DNA of 63,173 bases, filler included, from Atractiella rhizophila (lineage: Eukaryota): the NCBI GenBank assembly GCA_021432655.1. It is 9 parts of 9 records of this genome, joined end to end, with 100 filler letters (N's around TTAATTAATTAA, not from the genome) between each part and the next. Parts side by side here need not be neighbours in the genome. Positions count along the whole stretch, not along the records: positions 16,398 to 24,482 come from MU272173.1; 8 more parts are not named here. One strand, given 5' to 3'. Under the pieces are notes generated by a model. That model made no database searches and was not told the origin of the DNA. It worked only from the letters and a program-made list of their open reading frames with translations. Made by a program: the position numbers and the translations under genes. How positions within the stretch are numbered: the stretch's first letter is position 1; each line of letters starts with the position of its first letter. Positions 8,102 through 59,960 of the stretch are shown piece after piece.

Positions 8102-8201
8102 NNNNNNNNNNNNNNNNNNNNNNNNNNNNNNNNNNNNNNNNNNNNTTAATTAATTAANNNNNNNNNNNNNNNNNNNNNNNNNNNNNNNNNNNNNNNNNNN
8201 N
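8102..8201. other. Artificial scaffold linker (N-run, TTAATTAATTAA, N-run); also at 16298-16397, 24483-24582, 32641-32740, 40759-40858, 48874-48973, 56986-57085 and 59861-59960
   Basis: Identical 100-nt spacer with a six-frame stop core; genes are cut off at these points. Confidence 0.97.
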
Positions 8202-14787: not shown

Positions 14788-16397
14788 CGTCTAGCTGCTC
14801 CAGACGCTGCACTTCGCATTGTGGAATGTAAAGCAGCCCATGTTTTCCGGGTGCTANNNNNNNNNNNNNNNNNNNNNNNNNCCTCCGAATACCTGTACAT
14901 AGTGAGGTTGAAAGGTGTGCAAAGAACTGTAGACCAATATATCGAGAATCATTTAATGAGAGGAGGCAAAGGGCTAATGCATCTAAAGGTCAAAAGCGAC
15001 TCTGGACAATGATATTAGTATGGTCCATAATATAGTTCAAATCACATGATAGATGGTAGATAGATTATATCGTCAGTTCTTTGATCACTTCCTCCTTTGA
15101 ACAGTGAGATTGTACGCATGAAGTAGCTTAACTGCGAGGTACAGCTCTAGCAAGTTCAGACGAAGAACCACTCCAGTACAGCGCAAAGAAAATGCCCACT
15201 CAACTTTGTCGTCTAAAACGGTAAATCTTCCTCAGGAAAGGATGTACCATGGAAGTGATGGCTCCTGGGGCATATCATTTATAGGCGAAGGTATGAAGCC
15301 GACAATCAATGACAAATCCCATCAACAGAGCTAGACAGTTAATCGACACATCCCGTCCTCAAGCTTTGTCAGTGGAGAAATGCCGGAGCACTGGTATTTG
15401 TCTGCAATGTGAAGCTGAACTATTGAGGCCAGCTATTTGCATTTTTCAAAATCTAGGAGGCATTTGATTCTGGTGAAGGGCCGTTGACTATTAATGATGA
15501 TCGAATCTGGTCGACTAGAGACCAACAGTAGTTAAAGCCGCATTGCGCGATTAAACAAATTTGTCTTCTCTAGTCCGCAATATGAGTGTCACCCATTCTT
15601 GCCGAATGCAAATGGAACGAGCGGACATGAAGGTCCTACCCTTTCATCCAGCTCCTCTGCTTTCTTAGGAGAGAAGTGAGTAGCTCTGAATCCGGCCAGA
15701 ATACGTGCAAAACAGGGAACAACCAGTCTGCTTGTACAAAGACATGTTTCAGGGGAAAACCCCTTCCGATCGGGACGAAAAAGAAGAGTTCTGGATTGAG
15801 GTAAACTACGTGCTTTTGCTGTGACACCACGCCGCAGGCTCCGGCGTATTCTCATCTTATATCGCGCGCTTAAGAAAGTGGAGCCGACGATTGAATGCTC
15901 CTGAGAGTACTGCCTTCCATTCCTGGGAGATACAATGCTGAGTGAGGAGCACTCCAAACCCATTAGACACGCTTTTCCTTGGGCGCGGAGTGGTTTGGAC
16001 CACTATAGCAACCCGGCCCCAATGTCAGTTGGCACAGATCTCTCTCCTCCTCTCGCAGAAAGAAAAAGAATCTGCTGCAGAGAAAGGCAAGATAAAAGTG
16101 TGGCCACGCGATCAATGCGTTGTGCCATGTCACAATGTAATGAACACCATCAAAGTGAGGAGTCCTTCAGACTCTATCAGGAGAGTTGCACTTCCATGGC
16201 CCAGATAGCGGACCTCTTTCCACCTGCAAGAACTCTTGCCCACGCTTTCACACATAAGAAGGAACGCACCTTACAAATATCAGCATGACTAAACCTCNNN
16301 NNNNNNNNNNNNNNNNNNNNNNNNNNNNNNNNNNNNNNNNNTTAATTAATTAANNNNNNNNNNNNNNNNNNNNNNNNNNNNNNNNNNNNNNNNNNNN

Positions 16398-18033
16398 CAA
16401 ACAATACTACAAGACGGTGCTCGAGGATGATTTACGGGCCGAATTCCGTTTTGAAGAGGAGAAGAATCTGTGCATGATCACCGGTGTCATCAAATCACAG
16501 GATTGGCTTCATGCCGTGTTTCATCAGTCTGGGAGTAGCTTTGGTCTTAACGTAGGGGTTCAGCCTGCCGGCTTCCAGTTACGTCGTGATTACGGTAACA
16601 TCGGGGATCAAACATTGTTTATTAGCAGAATCACTTTCAAGGGTAGACTGATACATCGCTTGCTGAAAGCAGGCGGCTCGAGACCACCATCTCCATCGGA
16701 GAGACCTCCAGAGGAAGGCGTCGATGAAGTTTCTTGCGATGAGTCTACTGAAAGGCTGGTATGGGTCTCTTTTCGCTGCATTTAGTGCAACACTGATTTC
16801 TAGTAGTTTCCCGACCCGCTAGACGTTCTTCTTGAGGCCATGTTGACGGTGCTGACTTCTTTCCAACCAAGCGCATGCACTCATGACCTCCTACAGTTGC
16901 GTCCCGATGCTGAAGCTGCTATTGCTTCGGACAACGATTTGGGTGCTCTTTGTCAAAAGGTATGCAGCCATACAATGATATTCAGTTCTCGATGCGAGTA
17001 CCAGGCTCTCTGGAACTTCCAATATATAGAATGGACAACTCAGAAAGCGATTGAGCTGCTTCAAACTTGTGCTGAGTGCATCGAAGAGCAAGAGCAAGGT
17101 AAGTGCCACCTCGCCCAATTTGAAGGTAATTCTGATGTGCCTTTGTAGTCATGACCCTGAACTTCTCCAACGACTTAGCAGATGTCACAATGGATATATC
17201 ACTAGGGGAAGACTCTCAATACCTACAACCTTCCAATCATGGTATCCCATTCGTCAATTCTCCAGCCTTCAACGAATCGCTCCGGTTTCCATCCTTCTTG
17301 GATGACGATGCTATCGACACTGAGAGCAACTCTTCCTACCGTGAGGTGCAGCATGAGGAAGACAGTAAAATTCGCCCATGCAGGAAACGGAAGACAAATT
17401 GCGGAGCTCACGGTCGTCCCCCCTCGATTGTCCACCCTGTGGGAACGCATGAACGAAAGGGACTGAGGGAAGGAGAGCTGAACGGCTCCCATGCAACAAC
17501 GTTCGACCTCGTTACATGGCCCAAACCTGGAAACAATGCTGAACCAAGAACCCTATTCTTCTTCGAAGGAGTTGACGGCCCTGTGTGCCATGACTATTTT
17601 CAGCTAAAGGCGTAAGTTTTCGGGTTCCATCAGACAATAAGACTGACTGTGACACACAGCAAAGGTAACATCCTGGAAGCATCGGTATTCTTCGATACGA
17701 GAACGTATAATGTCGTACACAACTCTGATGGAAAGGAGATTCTGCCCTCGTTAAAGTCGAAACCCCACATCTGGCTGCAAGGTACTGCTCTCATAAGCTG
17801 TCTCTGATGAAGGGTAATGTTGAGAACAGCCCAAAAATGTGCATCCCCTTGCAGCTGGAGATTCAAAGGAAAGCAGGATTCTGAAAGTACGCATTTAATG
17901 TCTACCTCGAGCGAAAGCGAAACTAAGCCATCGAGCAGTTTTTGATCACGTCTTGACTTGCAAGTTCAGAAACACTAACGACCCACTGAATAAATTGTGT
18001 ACGGTATGGAAGGCACAAAGGATCAGAAGTTGA
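16398..18033 (+). CDS. Gasdermin-like protein A (5' truncated) with C-terminal Cys/His module; frameshift near 3' end
   Basis: QYYKTVLEDD..NLCMITGVIKSQDWLHAVF..DQTLFISRITFKGRL..DPLDVLLEAML..AEAAIASDND is closely paralogous to 20649-23488. The C-terminal exons (RTLFFFEG..KEILPS..WLQ..CASPCSWRF..HVLTCKFR) match the repeats at 18440-20129. Confidence 0.6.
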
Positions 18034-18439
18034 ACATGGAATGGGCTAATGAAATTGTTTTCGCGATTGTATTCTACCACATCTGCAATCACTATTGGAG
18101 TAGGTCCTAAAGGCAGGATGCTTGATTATCTGCATTGAAACTGTGAAGTGAAATCGAAGACGTTAACTTGAGGCTTGATGGTGATCTCACTCGTGCATCT
18201 CCTGTTTGTGTGTCTTCCGGTCCCACAACAAACTGTTGGCTGATCAAGATGCAATAAGAGGACAGAGCTCCTAGTAACACATCAGCACGATCTGACCAAC
18301 GTAACCCGGAAAACGTCAATTCCCCTTCATGCACTATTCAAAAGTGCTAGATCTCAAGTTTTCCTACAGGATACCTTCAGACAGTGCTGACTATGGGCTA
18401 CAACGAAGGCGCTGTTCACACGGTCCAAACTGTCCGTAC

Positions 18440-19064
18440 TCTTGATGGGTTTCCTTTTTTACATATAACCCGCACGAGATACTCGAGAAAGAATTCGCTC
18501 TCCCTGCCTTCGACGTCAGCAAATTTTCTGCATCCGCTGCTTCCAAGCTTCAATGGTCATGAACGTAATGGGAAGAAACTTTTACTTCTTTCAGGAACTT
18601 GGGTCCCCAGCGAGTGATGAATATTTTCTCCTACATAGGTGAGTTTGGATCCCATTACCTCATGCTTTGCGCTGAATGAGACATAGTAAGGGTCAAATCC
18701 AGGAAAACTTCGTGTATTTCCAACCTGGAACGTATCACGTCGTTCTCGACTCCAGCGGCAAGGAGATTCTGCCGTCACCGGAGTTCGCAACCGCCAACCA
18801 CAAGCTGTGGTTGCAAGGTACTGTTCTAACACACTGTCTGACCGAGGACTAACGTTGCGACCAGGTCAACAATGTCCATCCCCTTGCACTTGGATATTCA
18901 AAGGAAAGCAGGCTCATGAAAGTACGTATTTGACGTCTACCTCGAGGGAAACTCAGCCACCGAGCACAGTTATTCTGCACGTCTCGACTTGTAAGTTCAG
19001 AAATTACAGTGATCCCTTGAAGAAATTGTGTACCCTATGGAGGGCCAAGAGATCCAGAAATTGA
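18440..19064 (+). pseudogene. Stand-alone copy 2 of the Cys/His module
   Basis: RNFYFFQELGSPASDEYFLL|..GKEILPS..LWLQ|GQQCPSPCTWIF..HVSTCKFRNYSDPLKKLCTLW, with the same intron positions as in gene A and an in-frame TAA upstream near 18466. Confidence 0.55.
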
Positions 19065-19429
19065 ATCCAATTGGGTCTGTTGTTCTTGATACATTGTAAT
19101 GCAATCACATTTTGTATGGAATCGGCACAGTTCAGACTACGCCCTTCTTAGCGGGGAGGGTAGCTCCGGTACGTCCCAAACACGATTTCATCTGTCGCCG
19201 AGAAATTGAACGTCTCGACTTCGAAGTTGTGTAGTGAAAGCCTAAGACTTCGTGCTCTGTGATCTCCTGTTGACCAGCCTGCCTTCTGTTCGTGCCCCGT
19301 GGCTGACTAAGATGTACTATTTCTCTCAGATGGACAGAACCACTTGATGGCAACGTCAACGTTCGCATCAGCATCTCGCCAACACCTTCAAACAGCAAGG
19401 CGACAGAAAGTTGTTGGTGCCGTTCATTC

Positions 19430-20129
19430 ATGCGCAAGTCTTATTGGAGACTTTGCTTAGACGACGAGATACGTTTAGAGGACTCTTTCGCGCCGAGGCC
19501 ATCCAAACTCTCCATCTTGGATGCGTTTCTCTTCTGCATATATAGCGCACGAGATGCCGGAGAGGAAATTCGCGTTCCCTGTCTTCCAGGTCTGCGCTTT
19601 GCATCGCTACCTCGGAGCTTCGAAACTGCAACCCTCATGAATAGGAACGCAAGAAACTTTTACTTCTTCAAGGAACTTGACTTCCCCGCGAGCGATGAGT
19701 ATTTCCTCCTAAAAGCGTAAGTTTTTGTGCCATTACCGTATGCTCTAAGCTAACTGAGACAGGAGGGGTCTCACATTGGAAGATGCCGTGTTGTTCCCTC
19801 CTGGAACTTATAAAATTGTTCTGGACTCCAACGGGAAGGAGATTCTGCCTTCGATAGATTCCACTCCCAAACTATGGCTGCAATGTACTGTCCGGATGAC
19901 CTGTCTCTGAGAGGGACTAATAATCTGAGTAGGTCAGGAATGCCCATCCCCCTGCTCTTGGAGATTTGGCGGAAAGAATCCTGACGAAAGTACGCGTTTA
20001 ACTTCCTTCTCGAGCCAAACTCAGCCATGGAACACAGTTTTCCGTCATGTATCCACTTGTCAATTCAGAAGTCCCCAGGATCCCTTGAGGAAGTTGTGTC
20101 TACTATGGAAGGGAAGAAGATCCAGGTGA
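19430..20129 (+). pseudogene. Stand-alone copy 3 of the Cys/His module
   Basis: RNFYFFKELDFPASDEYFLLKA|..GKEILPS..LWLQ|..QECPSPCSWRF..HVSTCQFRSPQDPLRKLCLLW, with a 1-nt frameshift near 19798 relative to the other two copies. Confidence 0.55.
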
Positions 20130-20648
20130 ACATGCACAATAGGTTTACTATTCACAAAGGCTTGAATCATGATGCTTCTGAGGGTTTGGCTACTGAATTA
20201 GCGAAGCTGACAGCAGAGGATGCTTAGTGACCGGAACGCCTACTAAATAAGAGTTGCTGGAGTAAGTAAAAATGACATTATTACCTACTTGATTTCTTTG
20301 AGTCAACGCGAGAGCCCAAGAAAGCTCACATCAAGTGGGCGGAAAAGTCGCACAGATGGACCGAGCTTGAGAGTGGGAGCAGAGTCGCAGCCGCAATCGC
20401 TCCCCTTCATCGAGGAAGGAATGCGTTCGCTTCCCTTCACGACTGGGATTTGCGAGTGCTCAATGTGAAGTTTTCCTGCGGGATTCGTTCAGACGATGTT
20501 GTGTACGGGGGTGGCACCTCGTTCACACTGTCCGTCTGGGATGTATTTTGCTCTTTGCATATAATCCTCACCAGATGTCTGGGAGTGAATTCTTGTCCCT
20601 ACCTTCCAGGTTTTCAAACTTCAGTCTGAACCCGCAACTTGAACTATC

Positions 20649-23488
20649 ATGTCTTACGAACCTCATTACATCTATGAAACACTTATGTATGACTCTTTGC
20701 TCCACTGGCCCATTTACAACCCGTCGTACACCGAAGCTGATCCAGTCGCGCTACCACCAAGAAACGGGAGTCCCCCAATCTCCACACCAGAGACTGGGAC
20801 GTCTGGGACGCCCTCGAGCACGACTGTCCGTCCCTTCTCTACCCAAGAAAGAAACCAAAGTGATCCTTCAAATTCAATTGATTCAAGAGATCCATCTATC
20901 AGTGTGGAGGATTCAGGTACTGTGACTCCTCATACCTCTTCTCCAGTCTTATTGAAGTCATTCTTCCGCCGTCGCTTTCCACACGGTACAGGTGTTGCCA
21001 GTCCCGCCGTTCAACCGTCTTTTGGTAGTCGCTTAGCTAGTAGTCTCTTTGGCCGTTGGCTCCCAGGTACTCCTCCGTCGCCTGCCCCACCTCCTCGGAC
21101 TTCAGGCAGAAGCCAGGGCCGAGGTGGTGAATGGCGCATTGGAGATTTCGGATACTGCGCCAACGGCACGTTTAGATATTCGCGAAACGCAGATGACTTC
21201 TTAGGCCCAGAGGACGCTCCCCTCAGCTACTCCTTAGATGGTGTCGCTTGGGGCTACCAGACGCCACTCCAGAGAGGTGAATTTGAGTCTGTCAGGGACG
21301 TCAGGGTCGGGATCGATACTACTCCTACGGTGTGCGTTGCCCCTCCCCGTGCTTGTAGCGTTATTAAAAAGATGTTGCATGCAGCAGTATTGACCCCTTC
21401 CCTACTCTTGCGCTCCAATACTACAATCGGTCCCAGCATGCCGCCGTATTGGCCACCAAATCGAACCCCCTTCGTTTCGCCGTCACGCATCAGCTGCTTG
21501 CGGTTCAATACTTCAAGCAATACTACAAGACCGTGCTCGAAGACGATTTAAGCGCCGGATTCTCTTTTGGACAGAACAAAAATCTGTGCATGATTATTGG
21601 GGTCGTCAAATCGCATGATTGGCTTCATGCAGTGTTTCATCAGTCAGGCAGTAGCTTTCGTCTCAACATGGGGGTTCAAGCTGCCGGCTTCCAGTTAAAT
21701 CGTGATTATGATTATGGCGATATCTCAAGGCCCTCCGTCCGAACTGGACCCACCAACCACCAACCACGTTCGTTTACAGTACATAGCTCAATAAGCATAG
21801 TCTTACCATGTCGCAGGAAATGGAATCTTCTCGGCCCACAATAACGTCGACGTCGGGGATCAAACATTGTTTATTAGCAGAATCATGTTCAAGGGTAGAC
21901 TGATGCCTCGCTTGCTAGTGGCCGGCGGCTTCAAACCACCCTCGCCATCCCAGGGACATCCAGATAAAAAAATAGATGAAATTCGCTGCGATCAATCAAG
22001 TGAACAGCCCGTGCGTGCTTCTTTCGTTCAATCCCGGTGATAGCACCACTAATCCCTCGGTAGGCTACGGACCCTCTTGATGTTCTTCTTGAGGCGATGT
22101 TGATGGTCTGCAATTTTTTTTTGGAGAGATTGCCTCAATTCATAAACTCAACAGTTACGTCCCGATGTTGGAGCCGCTATTGCCTCGGACAACGACGTGG
22201 ATTCTCTTTGTCAAAAGGTATGCTGCGTGCACAATGTTATGACGGCGATTGATGCGAGTGTTAGGCTCTCTGGACCTTCAAATATGCAGAATGGACAACT
22301 CAAAAAGCGATGGAGTTGCTTCAAACATGTGTTGCGTGCATCGAAGAGGAAGACAAAGGTGTCTCATTCCATTCCACATCCGTGGAGAAGGTTGAAACCA
22401 TTGGTTCTTTGTAGTGCTAACCTTGAACTTCCCCATCAAATCACCAAACAGAGAAGAATTGTTGGAAGAGGACTCGGAACAGCAAAAGGTTCTGTCTGAC
22501 TCCGCCGTGCACAATTTAAAATCAGTCCACCAATCAGGCAGGCCAGAGTTGAGGTGGAATTTCTCCTCTATTCTGTGGAAAGCACAAAGTTTGATTGGTT
22601 TGGTGCATAGACCCAAGATCCCTTACAATGTCCCTGGGTATACCAATCACAACAATCATAACCGAGGGTGGCATCAGCATGGTGAGGATGCTCAGGCTTC
22701 TTTGCACAGAATCAAGAAAGTGATACCCGTCAACAGGATCTGGAATACCTGCAGAGGAGCGCTTACGGCAATTAAGCGAACTCATCGGATATCCTTTCGA
22801 TCGACAGAACTACCACCTGTGGATCACCGCAATTACAAATGCAAGTTATATTGGAAGACCTGAAGGCTCAAACGGAGGGCTTGCACGGTACGATGATTGC
22901 ATGAGTCAGAGGCTAACTGCTAACTCAAATCGCCTACAGTCTGGGAGATTTGGCAATGAAAACGGTTCAGACCGCGGTTTGCCCTGAACCTACACCCATT
23001 GCAACCCTCATTTTTTGTAGGTCCTTCACCGGGTCGGCCTGGGAGACGACGGAAGTGAGTATTTCAACATGTGCCTTGTCTTTTGTGATGAGCTCGATCT
23101 TCAGAGCGACACAACGAAACGATCCAGAGCCGCCTGAGCCAATTTCCCCTGGAGTTAATATGCAGGAAGTACAGGCTCCAGGAACTTGTTTATCATCGGC
23201 TGTCAGGGTTTCCAGGAAGGCATTGTGCAGATTTGGTCCGGGCTATCATCGGGGCTGTGTACCTCGACGTTCAGTTCCCCCTGATTCAAGTAAGAATGCT
23301 AAAGGGAGAGATAGTGTGTTGCTCATGGCTGCAACCCTATGGAAATGGTCGAAATGGTCATGAATAATCTGGATCTTCTTTGTGATCCCTCTCCACCACT
23401 GCAAGAGCAAGCAGCCAGTTACTACCAGCCAAGTAGCCACCTGAGTTACTGCGATGACTACCAACCGAGCAGCAGCCGAGGCTACTAG
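20649..23488 (+). CDS. Gasdermin-like protein B fused to a degenerate RNase III-like domain (multi-exon)
   Basis: N-terminal motifs WPIYNPS, RIGDFGY..GTF, AAVL..YFKQYY, LCMIIGVVKSHDW..AVF, DQTLFISRIMFKGR and DPLDVLLEAML..AAIASDND resemble the basidiomycete gasdermin-like family. C-terminal LSELIGYPF..AITNASY..NGGLARLGDLAMK..CADLVRAIIGAVYLD..VEMVMNNL follows the RNase III pattern. The frame is continuous through GT-AG introns. Confidence 0.65.
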
Positions 23489-25450
23489 AAGCCCAACAAA
23501 GGATATTACAAGCCACTAATCTCAAATACACGGAGACAAGCTTTCACTTCAGCGATTGAAAGGTGAGGGAGCCATGTCCTTGAAGCCTGCTATCAATTAT
23601 CAGTCGCATTGATGTCAGTTTCTATTCAACTATTCTTTCTCATTCGTTACCTACTTCTCATTTCGGGTTTTTCATCTCGTCCTGTTTCACTCAATTAATT
23701 CAGCGAGATTGACATCCTCTCCTCGATTCAGTTCTGAGGTATATTTGGTATATGTCCAATGTACATTTCCGGTCGTGAGTTAAATGATACCTGTTCCTCT
23801 GCACTTCCCTGCGTATTCGTCTTCTTCATGTTTTCGACGTGACCATCAAGTCTTTTGTCGAAGGAATTTTCGATGTACACTCTTTACTTCACAGTCTCGA
23901 TTAGGTACGGTATGATGTAGACTAGCTCCATCTGCGAACGTTCACATGTTTCAGACCTGTCAATCAAATAAATACGAACCTCTCTTGACTTTCTGACTCG
24001 TTACACGAAGGTAGCGGCAGACCTTTCGGTCCGAAAGATGCCTTCAAGGCAAGCTAACCATTAACTTATCGAATTAATCAAACGCTTAGAATCGCATGAA
24101 TTTGAAAAACAGCACAAAAGAAAGAGAGAATGCTAAAGCTGGCGAGAGGCACCCGAGTTGGATTGGAAGGTAAAAAGTGTTTATGACTATAACACGTAGT
24201 CGATTCTCATAGCCTCTTCTCCAGTCACGCACCATGTATAAGGGGTTGTACTGCGAAATGATTGCTGCTGCGAATTGTGTGTTGCAGCCTGAACGAGAAG
24301 CCAAGTGGGCGGAAAAGCGGGATCGACGGCTGCCAGGACACCAAGGGTCGGCGAAGCTGGTGAATGGTGAAGTGGCAGGAAGGAGAGTTGTGAGTGGAGA
24401 TGGTAGGTGTCGCTGCATAGCAGTTGGGGTCCTACACTGATTTGCTGGGTGACAGAAGCACTATAAGAATGCATACAACCTCNNNNNNNNNNNNNNNNNN
24501 NNNNNNNNNNNNNNNNNNNNNNNNNNTTAATTAATTAANNNNNNNNNNNNNNNNNNNNNNNNNNNNNNNNNNNNNNNNNNNNAGCTCTACTGCTGAACTA
24601 AAAGACGTGTTTCCTATGAAGTAATTGTTGAATGGATAATTGAGACCCTTAATGAGGTATTCCGGGTATACCAAACCACTGACAATCCGAGGTAGGCACA
24701 AAATCACGCGATGTTAAAGATCTATGTAAAATTTCAACCTTAGGTGTTAAGTTTCTGGGTACCACATAGTAGGTCGTTCTCTTTTCGTATCTCACACTCT
24801 CACCAACAAACTACCTTTGAGAACCGATCGTGTTCCTTGATTCTACATGTGCTGGCAATTAGAGTCGCATACGCATAAGTAACGAGTTTCACAACCATTC
24901 AGATGTTGAAAGTCTAGCACTTTGTCGGAGGGTGGGGCGGTGCAGAGGAAGGGAAGGTGCGCTGCGACCGTCTCCAGGAGTCAGGAGACCGCCGCGTTCA
25001 AATCTTGCTCGCCACTTGTCGCAAATTAATTCGAAACCTTGTGCAAATTGATTTATTAAGCAGCGGACACCGTAATGAGGCCGAGATGCGAAAGCGTGCG
25101 AACGGGCCGGCATCTAGCTGAACCTTGACTGAACCATGGCACATGTGCGTCATCATAGAGCCGAGAACAGGAATGCGACCTGATACTTAGAACCAGTACG
25201 TTACTTTTCTGTAAAGTGTAAAGCTGTACAGAGAGGTACTGCGTGAAGGAATGCGCTCGCGCAGTCTCGGCCTCGGCCGCTCCGCCTGCCTCGCCTTTAC
25301 AGCTTTTGCCCCTTTCAAAAATCGACGACGACTTGATCTGTAAAGAGTATCGCCCTTAAAAAATGGAGCTCGTTCGACGGCACCCTCCCTTTCCCACTCT
25401 CCTCTTACATCCAAACCACCTGCACCACCCTCCTTCGTTAATTTCAAGCC

Positions 25451-30880: not shown

Positions 30881-32740
30881 TGTTGTTGATTATTAAGTTT
30901 AGAGCCCCTCGCCCACATTAAGGGACTATTCCGTCACTCTGGACCTTGTTCTTAACTCGAAATGAGGCATAATGATATATTTAGAATTAAAGCTCTTGCT
31001 TACAAATAAATTTTACATCTGTTTCAATCTGCTGAAGAAGAAAGAGATAAAGCAGTATCAAGACGGCGCATAGAACAATGAACTCTACGGTATGCTTCAT
31101 GTGGAATGAATGCCCTTTCGAGTGCGCTGATCTTCATCTTGACTTTACAAACAATGACCGGAGCTACAGCGAGCCACCTAATGGTGTTCCTTTACACTCC
31201 GGTCACTGAACGACTACTTCATCTCTTACTCCAACTGAAACCCATTTACGAAAGAAAGCATGAACAAAAAACTCAGCTCATCAGCAACCGGTCCCTTCTT
31301 CCCAATCCGACTACTATCCAAATATCAAATATCCAGACACAGCTCACATTCCTTCATGCTCAAACTACGTGGTTGGATGTGAAATAGGCATGAATATCTA
31401 TAATCCTTGTCAGTTCAGTCTTACTGCCTTAAATGAGAAAGTTAATGGGCCAAAACATACCTTCTGTGCGCCTACTAATGTAAATAAGATAAAATGAGTG
31501 GCTGATGAGGCAAGCGAGGAGCCTGCATATGTTTCTCAACTCAATTAGCATTGCAATCCATATTTCCTTATTTTACAGCCCTTCAACCCGATCTGTCGCA
31601 TCCTCTATCAATGAAATGGTATCACCTATCCCCAATACTAAGTTAGAAAGTGTTAAAAACAACATGACAAAGTAACCGTCTTTCTTTCCCCTTCCAGTGT
31701 TAGAAACTGATGCTGGAAATGGATTGACATATCTTGGGAGTTCCAGCAAGCTATGCCGCCCTTCCAGCATTCTAGGCTACCTACTGCAGGAGTTCCAGTG
31801 CAGGAGAGGAGCCCATAACAGCATGAAAAGGCACGACGGGAACGAAAAAACCAAAAACTCTCATTCAGACCTGTTGGCAAGGAAAGCTGAAGACGTACCG
31901 TTGTGATGTTGGAGAGAAAGCAAAGTAAAACAACCCAAACACCTTTGAATAGCTTAATAACGCGCGTCGTCAACTGAAAGAATAGCGCCGCTCGTCTAGT
32001 TTGGAAAGAGAAGGTGAGGAGAAAGGCTGAGCGGCGCTTTATGCTATCATAAAGTGCAGTGGAGTGGAGGGGAGGAGGGAGGAGCAGGAAGGAGGGTTTG
32101 GCGTCGAAAGCAGTATTGAAAGGGAGAAGGGGGAGGAAAACACGAAGAGAGTTGGAAAGAGGGGAGAGCGAGAACGAACGAGGATAACATGCTGACACAT
32201 TGAGCTGACGTGTTCGGAAGAAGGGGACCCGACGCCGTTGTAACGGCCAGGCGTTCGGTACCCTAATCGTACTTTACACTTTACAGAAAAGGTACTTACT
32301 CGGGTCAAAATAGTCGAAGTTATGTTAAGTCAATTCTTAATTTAGGCGGTTCGATTTGCCGCTCGGTCTCGCAACGATCACTCCATTTTGAAGGTTATTG
32401 CAGATATTACAGTTGAAAGGGATTGAATGGAGATCAGTAGTGAGCGCTGCTTACGAGCTTACGACGTGAAGGAGTTATTTCTCACACGCTCACTTAAAAC
32501 GGCGCACCTCATGAAACTTTTTCTCCTCCAACGTTTTCAAACTCAGCTTCGCTCTAAGAATAGTGACGACGACACGCACCAACGCGCTTCCCTTTGTTGC
32601 CAGTTCCCTGGAAAAACCGTCTCCGGCTCCTCCTACACAANNNNNNNNNNNNNNNNNNNNNNNNNNNNNNNNNNNNNNNNNNNNTTAATTAATTAANNNN
32701 NNNNNNNNNNNNNNNNNNNNNNNNNNNNNNNNNNNNNNNN

Positions 32741-40758: not shown

Positions 40759-40858
40759 NNNNNNNNNNNNNNNNNNNNNNNNNNNNNNNNNNNNNNNNNN
40801 NNTTAATTAATTAANNNNNNNNNNNNNNNNNNNNNNNNNNNNNNNNNNNNNNNNNNNN

Positions 40859-48873: not shown

Positions 48874-49617
48874 ANNNNNNNNNNNNNNNNNNNNNNNNNN
48901 NNNNNNNNNNNNNNNNNNTTAATTAATTAANNNNNNNNNNNNNNNNNNNNNNNNNNNNNNNNNNNNNNNNNNNNGTCGTATCGGCGAAATTGAGTTTCGA
49001 CTGAGCGACTTAAACCCTTCGTTAGCCCAAGAGGCCTATGACAATTCCAATTATGATGCATATTCCGTTTCTTCTTCGAGCAGCAGCGATAGTGAGGAGT
49101 CAGTCCAGAGTGGTGATTTTGATCTCTGAAATGTATGCGTTTTGCGTCTCCGTATTAGCGGCGAATTGCCGGGCGGCGACAGATGTAAATGTGTCGTAGT
49201 GGCAAAAGGATTGTAGTGAGTGGGGAGAACAAAGGCAAGGGTGATGCAGGACTCACACTCCCCTGTCTAGGGGAGGACCCTCAGGCGTTCCTCCCACTAG
49301 CTACCCAAGCTTATTTTGGAGCTCGCAACCAAACAGGCCTGGGCCACGCGCTCGTGGACACAACGCGCAGTATAACGGGTCGGCGATTTGCAAGCTCGCC
49401 GCCGGTCTGTCTTCTTTGTGGAAGAATGTGTTGTCGAGCGAACAAACATGGGGAAGCAAAGATAAAAGCAAAAATAGGAACCAATAAACGTCAAAATCAG
49501 AACAGAGTGTAGGACGAGGGGAAGCCTTTGTGTACCTCGTAATGGAGGGATTTTTTGAAGTTTGACCGGTGTTGTTTTGGTGCAGTAAGCAACCATTTGT
49601 GAAAATGGGTTGAGTAA

Positions 49618-56985: not shown

Positions 56986-57085
56986 NNNNNNNNNNNNNNN
57001 NNNNNNNNNNNNNNNNNNNNNNNNNNNNNTTAATTAATTAANNNNNNNNNNNNNNNNNNNNNNNNNNNNNNNNNNNNNNNNNNNN

Positions 57086-59860: not shown

Positions 59861-59960
59861 NNNNNNNNNNNNNNNNNNNNNNNNNNNNNNNNNNNNNNNN
59901 NNNNTTAATTAATTAANNNNNNNNNNNNNNNNNNNNNNNNNNNNNNNNNNNNNNNNNNNN

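Follow-up and report, generated by a model that had tools for sequence, protein, structure and literature searches.

What distinguishes two neighbouring genes that begin alike and end with nothing in common? The question is raised by a single 8,085-bp scaffold of the root-associated fungus Atractiella rhizophila, positions 16398-24482 of the window (the whole 63,173-nt stretch of DNA that was analysed, filler included), which holds four genes called here A, C1, C2 and B. A and B had been described in an original prediction as tandem gasdermin-like paralogs with swapped C-terminal modules. The best overall explanation of the locus, to which we give an even chance, is that both genes belong to a family known so far from A. 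rhizophila alone, whose front part is probably gasdermin-like and whose unrelated tails have been exchanged between members. The genes lie on one uninterrupted stretch without N, and no further copies of either were found elsewhere in the window.

The part common to the two genes (16398-17170 in A, 21514-22435 in B) has a mean column identity of 77% in the DNA alignment, introns included, and a repeat finder recovers it as five collinear blocks of 74-87% identity (families D3, D5, D10, D12 and D15). Each of the four introns predicted for A in this part (16759-16806, 16849-16896, 16960-17004 and 17099-17148) has a counterpart at the matching place in B (22011-22063, 22106-22154, 22218-22264 and 22359-22414), the B introns being delimited by GT..AG joints in the contigs of a run termed X1. 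The proposal that A and B share sequence and intron positions up to the motif V(M/L)TLNF is borne out by this identity and by the four matching introns; the A form of the motif, VMTLNF, ends at 17165 and the B form, VLTLNF, at 22431, each directly 3' of the shared intron. Complete divergence from that point on had also been proposed, and here the picture is more nuanced. The tails are indeed unrelated, the tail of A having no significant similarity to B by BLASTP (best expectation value, E, 0.97) and the small Cys/His protein P0009 having none either (best E 6.9), but the likeness of the DNA fades gradually across ~60-70 nt past TLNF, within an exon and not at an intron. Exon shuffling at the shared intron was therefore rejected as the origin of the break, since the likeness of A and B runs ~60-70 nt on into the exon. 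The two cores and the three Cys/His modules of the scaffold are evolving as coding sequence under purifying selection: comparison of the cores over 192 codons gives a ratio of non-synonymous to synonymous substitution rates (dN/dS) of 0.33, and the modules compared with one another give 0.24-0.37.

The architecture is seen most completely in B. Run X1 has no kind on record and is taken to be complementary DNA because its contigs skip GT..AG introns; the results drawn from it rest on the 15 of 26 joints and 8 of 36 contig pieces that were listed. Thirteen GT..AG joints in these contigs give a chain of 14 exons, the translation of which is identical, letter for letter, to P0002, a protein of 717 aa carried in the database as 'hypothetical protein' of Atractiella rhizophila. 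Its front part consists of an N-terminal motif, a Pro/Ser-rich stretch, a beta-rich core (from ~21096), a Pro/Ser linker and a helical region, in that order. Nine of the joints, from 22010 to 23315, flank the TLNF exon of B and all have a depth of 36.4, as does a 1,620-nt contig listed from 23315 to 23984. Because joints of equal depth span both sides of the TLNF exon, the fusion of the core to its RNase III-like tail is not a genome misassembly, and the concern that the junction might be one is thus removed for B. It has to be set against this that X1 may stem from the strain used for annotation and would therefore not be independent of P0002.

The RNase III-like ending first proposed for B is recognisable, though at a modest score. 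The domain occupies residues 558-661 (22814-23317), and the tail matches Pfam family PF14622 at E 2.6e-4 over profile positions 3-111, but its 21.6 bits stay under the cut-off of 35. The related protein P0003 matches the same family at E 5.2e-6 with 27.1 bits (profile positions 1-30), also under that cut-off, and the exon piece 23110-23289 of B gives E 0.028 and 0.05 against the RNase III families (PF14622 / PF00636); phmmer searches of the PDB with P0002 and P0003 found no RNase III. Judged by eye, the sequence NGGLARLGD in the B tail lies where, as we presume, the catalytic signature of RNase III has two further acidic residues. Since NGGLARLGD occupies the place at which these would be expected, the domain is read as an RNase III-like fold that is probably inactive, and so probably not a nuclease.

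B is one member of a family. A phmmer search with the first exon of A against 1.84 billion representatives yielded six proteins, word-based searches yielded four (longer proteins) and five (core profile), and a cluster look-up added one more. The nine database relatives (P0001-P0008 and P0010) are all from Atractiella rhizophila and are distributed over seven contigs; no relative outside this species was returned by the phmmer or the word-based searches of protein databases. Seven of the nine reach the motif V/G-L-T-L-x-F, and together with A they make eight proteins with five kinds of tail: the RNase III-like tail of P0002 and P0003, a common domain of ~240 aa without a Pfam match in P0004 and P0006, an acidic low-complexity tail in P0005 and P0008, another long tail in P0007, and the linker plus Cys/His module of A. 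The expectation that other family members would carry further domains is confirmed by this catalogue. Unrelatedness of the tails was assessed pairwise for A and B and, for the other members, by an alignment (A2) that has no conserved column after the motif. Within the family 100-280 aa precede the core and tails of 120-330 aa follow it, and tail diversity is also seen on four further contigs.

Is the core that all these tails follow a gasdermin? The label given to it at the outset is retained here in a weakened form: the beta-rich core is, on balance, more probably gasdermin-like than otherwise, a view based on sequence comparison and on the consideration that the hypothesis was fixed beforehand and that a chance top match would rarely be a gasdermin. 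A profile made from four core sequences (A3), searched against the PDB with E up to 10, reached only 8sl0_A (E 0.072) and 7n51_A (E 0.12), both of them bacterial gasdermin, with ~165 residues aligned (positions 72-234 of the 237-residue chain). The eight-protein profile A2 listed 7n51_A at E 1.3, and bacterial gasdermin thus appeared in two of the six PDB sequence searches that had the core in the query (E 0.072-1.3). In an atlas of protein clusters, the only neighbours by features to which a Pfam family is attached were Bact_GSDM (0.83) and Gasdermin (0.80), and by structure the named neighbours were likewise gasdermins, bGSDM and gasdermin D.

Several observations weigh against this reading. 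All gasdermin scores lie below a safe level and below the bars set by the tools themselves; the other four of the six core-holding PDB searches (A4, P0005, P0006 and P0002) returned no gasdermin, and the unrelated PsaQ reached E 0.095 in a PDB search, similar to the gasdermin matches. Searches of the PDB with P0002, P0003, P0005, P0006 and P0007 gave chance-level matches only. The structure model of the atlas has a template modelling (TM) score of 0.34/0.40 to bGSDM and 0.34/0.24 to gasdermin D, under 0.5 in each case. The animal Gasdermin family of Pfam (PF04598) matched none of four cores at E up to 10, Pfam Gasdermin matched none of the eight full proteins at E up to 0.1, and PADLOC and NCBIfam had no match to the core. 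AlphaFold gave unusable models both for the whole of B with eight paralogs (mean predicted local distance difference test score, pLDDT, 34.4) and for the core with 10 rows (mean pLDDT 38.0), the helical region being the only part modelled above pLDDT 58; the Foldseek and VIA fold searches that depend on these models consequently carry no weight. In addition, the core is preceded by a long N-terminal extension, unlike the characterised fungal gasdermin HET-Q1 with its 278 aa (PMC8851545). Scans of exons and of four further open frames on the 8,085-bp scaffold detected no protease family, although a protease gene may lie beyond the ends of so short a piece.

Taken together, such observations would also fit a front part that is an orphan, species-restricted domain unrelated to gasdermin, in a birth-and-death family whose 3' ends have been reshuffled without a common logic. 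The confinement of all relatives to A. rhizophila in large protein databases, the silence of Pfam, NCBIfam and PADLOC on the core, gasdermin matches at E 0.07 or worse in company with chance matches of similar E, and a core left unfolded by AlphaFold all speak for it. We nevertheless consider it unlikely, if still a serious alternative. The gasdermin hypothesis preceded the tests, and profile A3 reached nothing in the PDB except gasdermins, with the alignment extending over nearly the full chain; the atlas, an independent method, named gasdermin families only; and purifying selection argues against mere decay. The silence of Pfam says little, moreover, because the library searched was without the bacterial gasdermin model PF26164. 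The architecture, the splicing of B, the purifying selection and the variety of tails are established here; a gasdermin fold, autoinhibition and any sensor role of the tails are what we infer only.

Two further observations from the atlas concern the distribution of the core. Unnamed basidiomycete clusters were found at 0.96, and a basidiomycete cluster of 801-aa WD40-repeat proteins has an N-terminal portion whose predicted structure matches the core of B at a TM score of 0.69 by query. Judging from this structural match, the same front domain may also be fused to repeat domains in other fungi.

Gene A is the more problematic of the two paralogs. It begins at base 1 of the scaffold, with its 5' part outside the window, and its eight exons, assigned by homology, join to 431 codons without a stop across seven GT..AG introns of 45-52 nt. 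The Cys/His ending originally ascribed to it is present; the gene as such is cut at its 5' end and internally shortened, and the module is the first unit of a tandem array. Apart from a gap of 33 aa, all 155 of 155 aligned residues are identical to the sister protein P0001. Compared with B, 136 nt are missing (21715-21850 of B, that is, a 49-nt intron and 87 coding nt; the site in A is 16593-16597).

These features raise the possibility that A is a decaying or chimeric copy whose translation may end ahead of the tail, in which case the Cys/His module would be the remnant of a small gene that has lost its start. The deletion costs the core 29 residues by comparison with B and 33 by comparison with P0001, and the near-identical P0001 keeps the segment; it is in frame, however, and the reading frame over all eight exons stays open. 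The annotated model of P0001 places the exon before TLNF in another frame, by way of a downstream acceptor, and stops early, right after entering the TLNF exon. In A the candidate acceptors before exon 17005-17098 are 17004 and, downstream, 17029, but at the matching intron of B the contigs take the upstream acceptor. No contig of X1 bridges the TLNF junction of A among the 8 of 36 pieces listed, and the protein-database searches returned no protein model for A. At the site from which C1 and C2 initiate, the module lacks an ATG, but its dN/dS against the free-standing copies is low (0.37 versus C1, 0.24 versus C2), and two of its joints, 17611>17660 and 17779>17828, are seen in X1 contigs. The linker between motif and module resembles neither B nor any other part of the scaffold. 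The 131 codons from 17151 are open, as only 53 of 20,000 shuffles are, and the other two frames contain six and seven stops; a variant X1 contig over 17332-17467 differs from it by 15 substitutions and a 3-nt deletion, with the frame kept and no stop. The substitutions themselves (five synonymous, ten non-synonymous) are near neutral and would agree with decay. With the points on either side considered, this reading of A seems to us unlikely.

The variant contig has a wider implication. X1 contigs occur in each bin between 16398 and 18017, and contigs with ~11% differences are found at 17332-17467 and 18522-18602; the 3-nt deletion lies at 17370, and 8 nt are inserted behind 18544. Run X1 therefore contains another, diverged version of both the linker of A and the start region of C1, the linker version being transcribed. 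Coverage by X1 is absent in the bin 18018-18287 and nearly absent in 19098-19367, from which nothing is concluded.

What lies between A and B was no part of the original prediction, nor was the position of the break within an exon. The repeat finder identified a threefold tandem unit with a period of ~1.05 kb (17545-18034, 18572-19065 and 19650-20133). The Cys/His module of A is unit 1, and units 2 and 3 are the small genes C1 and C2, so that the small Cys/His gene stands free twice between the two large genes. The module is ~110 residues long, and four of its Cys and one His are invariant. C1 is identical to P0009, encoded on another contig, in 115 of 122 residues (94.3%), and dN/dS between C2 and C1 is 0.27. 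An X1 contig covers 19432-19717, and the joint 19717>19766 is listed with two extra letters. Neither Pfam (best E 0.058) nor the atlas assigned the small protein to a credible family. TcpK-like bacterial clusters proposed for it by the atlas (0.93-0.94) were taken as chance, the structure model being poor (pLDDT 0.34).

The repetition extends into the flanking DNA. C1, C2 and B are each preceded, over ~250 nt ahead of the start codon, by homologous sequence, as is also registered by repeat families D13 and D14: the regions upstream of C1 and B agree at 80% over 40 nt and 68% over 118 nt, those of C2 and B at 73% over 90 nt, and those of C1 and C2 at 74% over 97 nt. It follows from this homology that the repeated unit consists of a small gene together with the promoter that serves the gene downstream of it. 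By sequence comparison, one large gene and two unrelated small genes have a putative promoter type in common, which was spread by tandem duplication. The coordinates of these features are collected in Table 1.

Table 1. Features of the A. rhizophila scaffold and its upstream spacer (window positions)
Feature	Position	Strand	Description
Spacer between scaffolds	16298..16397	.	44 N + TTAATTAATTAA + 44 N; gene A cut here
Gene A, shared part	16399..17165	+	exons 16399-16758, 16807-16848, 16897-16959, 17005-17098, then 17149 on; ends VMTLNF
Gene A, linker	17166..17534	+	open frame, 123 codons; no relative elsewhere on the scaffold
Gene A, Cys/His module	17535..18033	+	exons to 17611, 17660-17781, 17830-17886, 17939-18033; stop 18031-18033
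Small gene C1	18553..19064	+	122 aa, 4 exons, own ATG; free-standing Cys/His protein, unit 2
Small gene C2	19637..20129	+	116 aa, 4 exons, own ATG; free-standing Cys/His protein, unit 3
Upstream region of B	20440..20648	+	homologous to ~18343-18540 upstream of C1 and ~19500-19595 upstream of C2 (within 18343-18560 and 19500-19640)
Gene B, whole	20649-23488	+	14 exons, 717-aa product = P0002
Gene B, front part	20649..22431	+	N-terminal motif, Pro/Ser-rich stretch, core, linker, helical region to VLTLNF
Gene B, tail	22432..23488	+	acidic linker, then RNase III-like domain; stop 23486-23488

How far can this layout be trusted as that of a genuine locus? The window is composed of scaffold pieces separated by identical 100-nt spacers (8102-8201, 16298-16397, 24483-24582, 32641-32740, 40759-40858, 48875-48974, 56986-57085 and 59861-59960). 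Up to 56985 the pieces shrink steadily, from ~8,101 to 8,011 nt, as if sorted by size; pieces that adjoin in the window are therefore not genomic neighbours, and as 16398-24482 is a separate small scaffold the other pieces provide no genomic context for it. A contig of 145,873 bp holds the same gene set, namely P0001 (A-like), P0009 (C1-like) and P0010 plus P0003 (B-like, split), and is the one other contig to do so. The scaffold might accordingly represent that locus a second time, either as the other haplotype or as a copy broken at a repeat, in which case its tandem layout would be partly an assembly effect and the end of A collapsed or converted. In keeping with this possibility the scaffold starts inside a repeated gene, the core of A is identical to P0001 over the 155 aligned residues, and C1 is 94.3% identical to P0009. 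B, by comparison, is 69.5% identical to P0010 and 65.6% to P0003; these values can be counted on the same side, but the divergence is too large for an ordinary allele. We regard a haplotypic or assembly origin as possible though doubtful, and the finding would stand even so, for A and B lie on one stretch without N, the X1 contigs carry the junction of B, and the diversity of tails recurs on the four further contigs. The B-like gene of the large contig is annotated as two proteins, P0010 and P0003 (216 and 387 aa), which together are without the central beta-rich stretch; the copy may be broken, or the gene model may have been split.

The favoured reading, a family with a common front and exchanged tails, suggests how the locus may have arisen and how its products may act. 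The constant front would comprise the N-terminal motif, a variable Pro/Ser stretch, the beta-rich core, the Pro/Ser linker, the helical region and the motif V/G-L-T-L-x-F. Tails would have been exchanged by duplication and by recombination inside the acidic stretch just past this motif, and not by exon shuffling at the intron. The tail of A could have been acquired by fusion with one unit of the neighbouring tandem array of the small Cys/His gene; alternatively, the array may have been generated by repeated duplication of the tail of A together with the promoter of B. In functional terms the beta-rich core would be a membrane-permeabilising executioner, kept inactive, as in other gasdermins, by what follows it, with the Pro/Ser linker and the helical region possibly serving as hinge and lock. 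The tail might set the cue for release, which could be a protease, a modification or the binding of a partner and would differ between paralogs. Pairing or competition of the free-standing Cys/His proteins with the tail of A is suggested by the fact that this tail and the two adjacent free-standing copies are the same module. The full functional scheme, in which a gasdermin-type executioner has its trigger recognition in cis, the tails act as paralog-specific baits or sensors and the adjacent copies as competitors or co-receptors, is at present quite unlikely and is put forward as a speculation.

A family whose executioner has long interchangeable tails would constitute a second way of wiring pore-forming cell death to different cues, and it would offer natural domain swaps for asking what keeps a pore former inactive. 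Gasdermin-type genes would also be extended to the little-studied Atractiellomycetes, a group of rust-related basidiomycetes. Even without a gasdermin core, the locus is a clean, RNA-supported case in which tandem duplication has led to the fusion of genes and the capture of a promoter.

Known systems offer several points of comparison. Microbial gasdermins are short proteins that a small C-terminal segment keeps inactive until a protease frees them (PMC8851545, PMC10197012, PMC12881547, PMC9815663). HET-Q1 of Podospora anserina, for example, is described as a 278-aa protein that loses a fragment of ~5 kDa (PMC8851545). According to PMC10197012, ~80% of fungal gasdermin genes adjoin a protease gene (S8 or CHAT) whose extra domains sense, and fungal gasdermins expand in a birth-and-death manner; in reviews, fungal gasdermin-type genes are said to be far commoner in ascomycetes. 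With HET-Q1 and RCD-1 of Neurospora crassa the family described here would have in common a beta-rich executioner core, which is probable, an expansion within the species, and a region behind the core that could hold it inactive. No sequence match between these two and the Atractiella proteins was obtained, and the layout differs: HET-Q1 is short, whereas the proteins here are extended on both sides of the core, by 100-280 aa in front and by tails of 120-330 aa behind. In fungal and bacterial gasdermin systems described so far, furthermore, the variable sensing domains reside on a separate protease gene, whereas here the variable domains are in cis and no protease gene was detected in the scanned parts of the scaffold. 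The literature searched, supplementary gene lists aside, describes no fungal proteins of gasdermin type whose C-terminal domains are long and interchangeable.

Among solved proteins, the core profile reached the bacterial gasdermins alone (bGSDM; PDB 8SL0 and 7N51). They also form the nearest named cluster of the atlas, but they measure ~240-270 aa with a short C-terminal peptide, and the match (E 0.07-1.3, TM 0.34-0.40) is below the level of membership. Chimeras of a gasdermin fold with cytolysin parts are reported from bacteria in the abstract of a preprint (10.64898/2026.10.05.756811). Animal gasdermins follow a comparable logic, with a pore-forming front and a sizeable C-terminal region in one chain, yet their C-terminal domains are mutually homologous (Pfam Gasdermin_C) whereas the Atractiella tails are mutually unrelated. 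The integrated-decoy nucleotide-binding leucine-rich-repeat receptors (NLRs) of plants, to which the locus had been likened from the beginning, and the NLR/effector pairs of fungi also join a fixed part to exchangeable domains. The likeness is one of analogy only, no NLR part being present: NACHT, NB-ARC, LRR, WD40, ANK and TPR families were absent by Pfam from all eight family proteins. As in the NLR/effector pairs, adjacent genes have a module in common, here the tail of A and C1/C2; in the fungal pairs this is a short amyloid motif, at the present locus a Cys/His domain of ~110 aa. If the full functional scheme put forward above as a speculation is true, the A. rhizophila family would be a one-chain counterpart of the integrated-decoy receptors, built on a pore former and not on an NLR.

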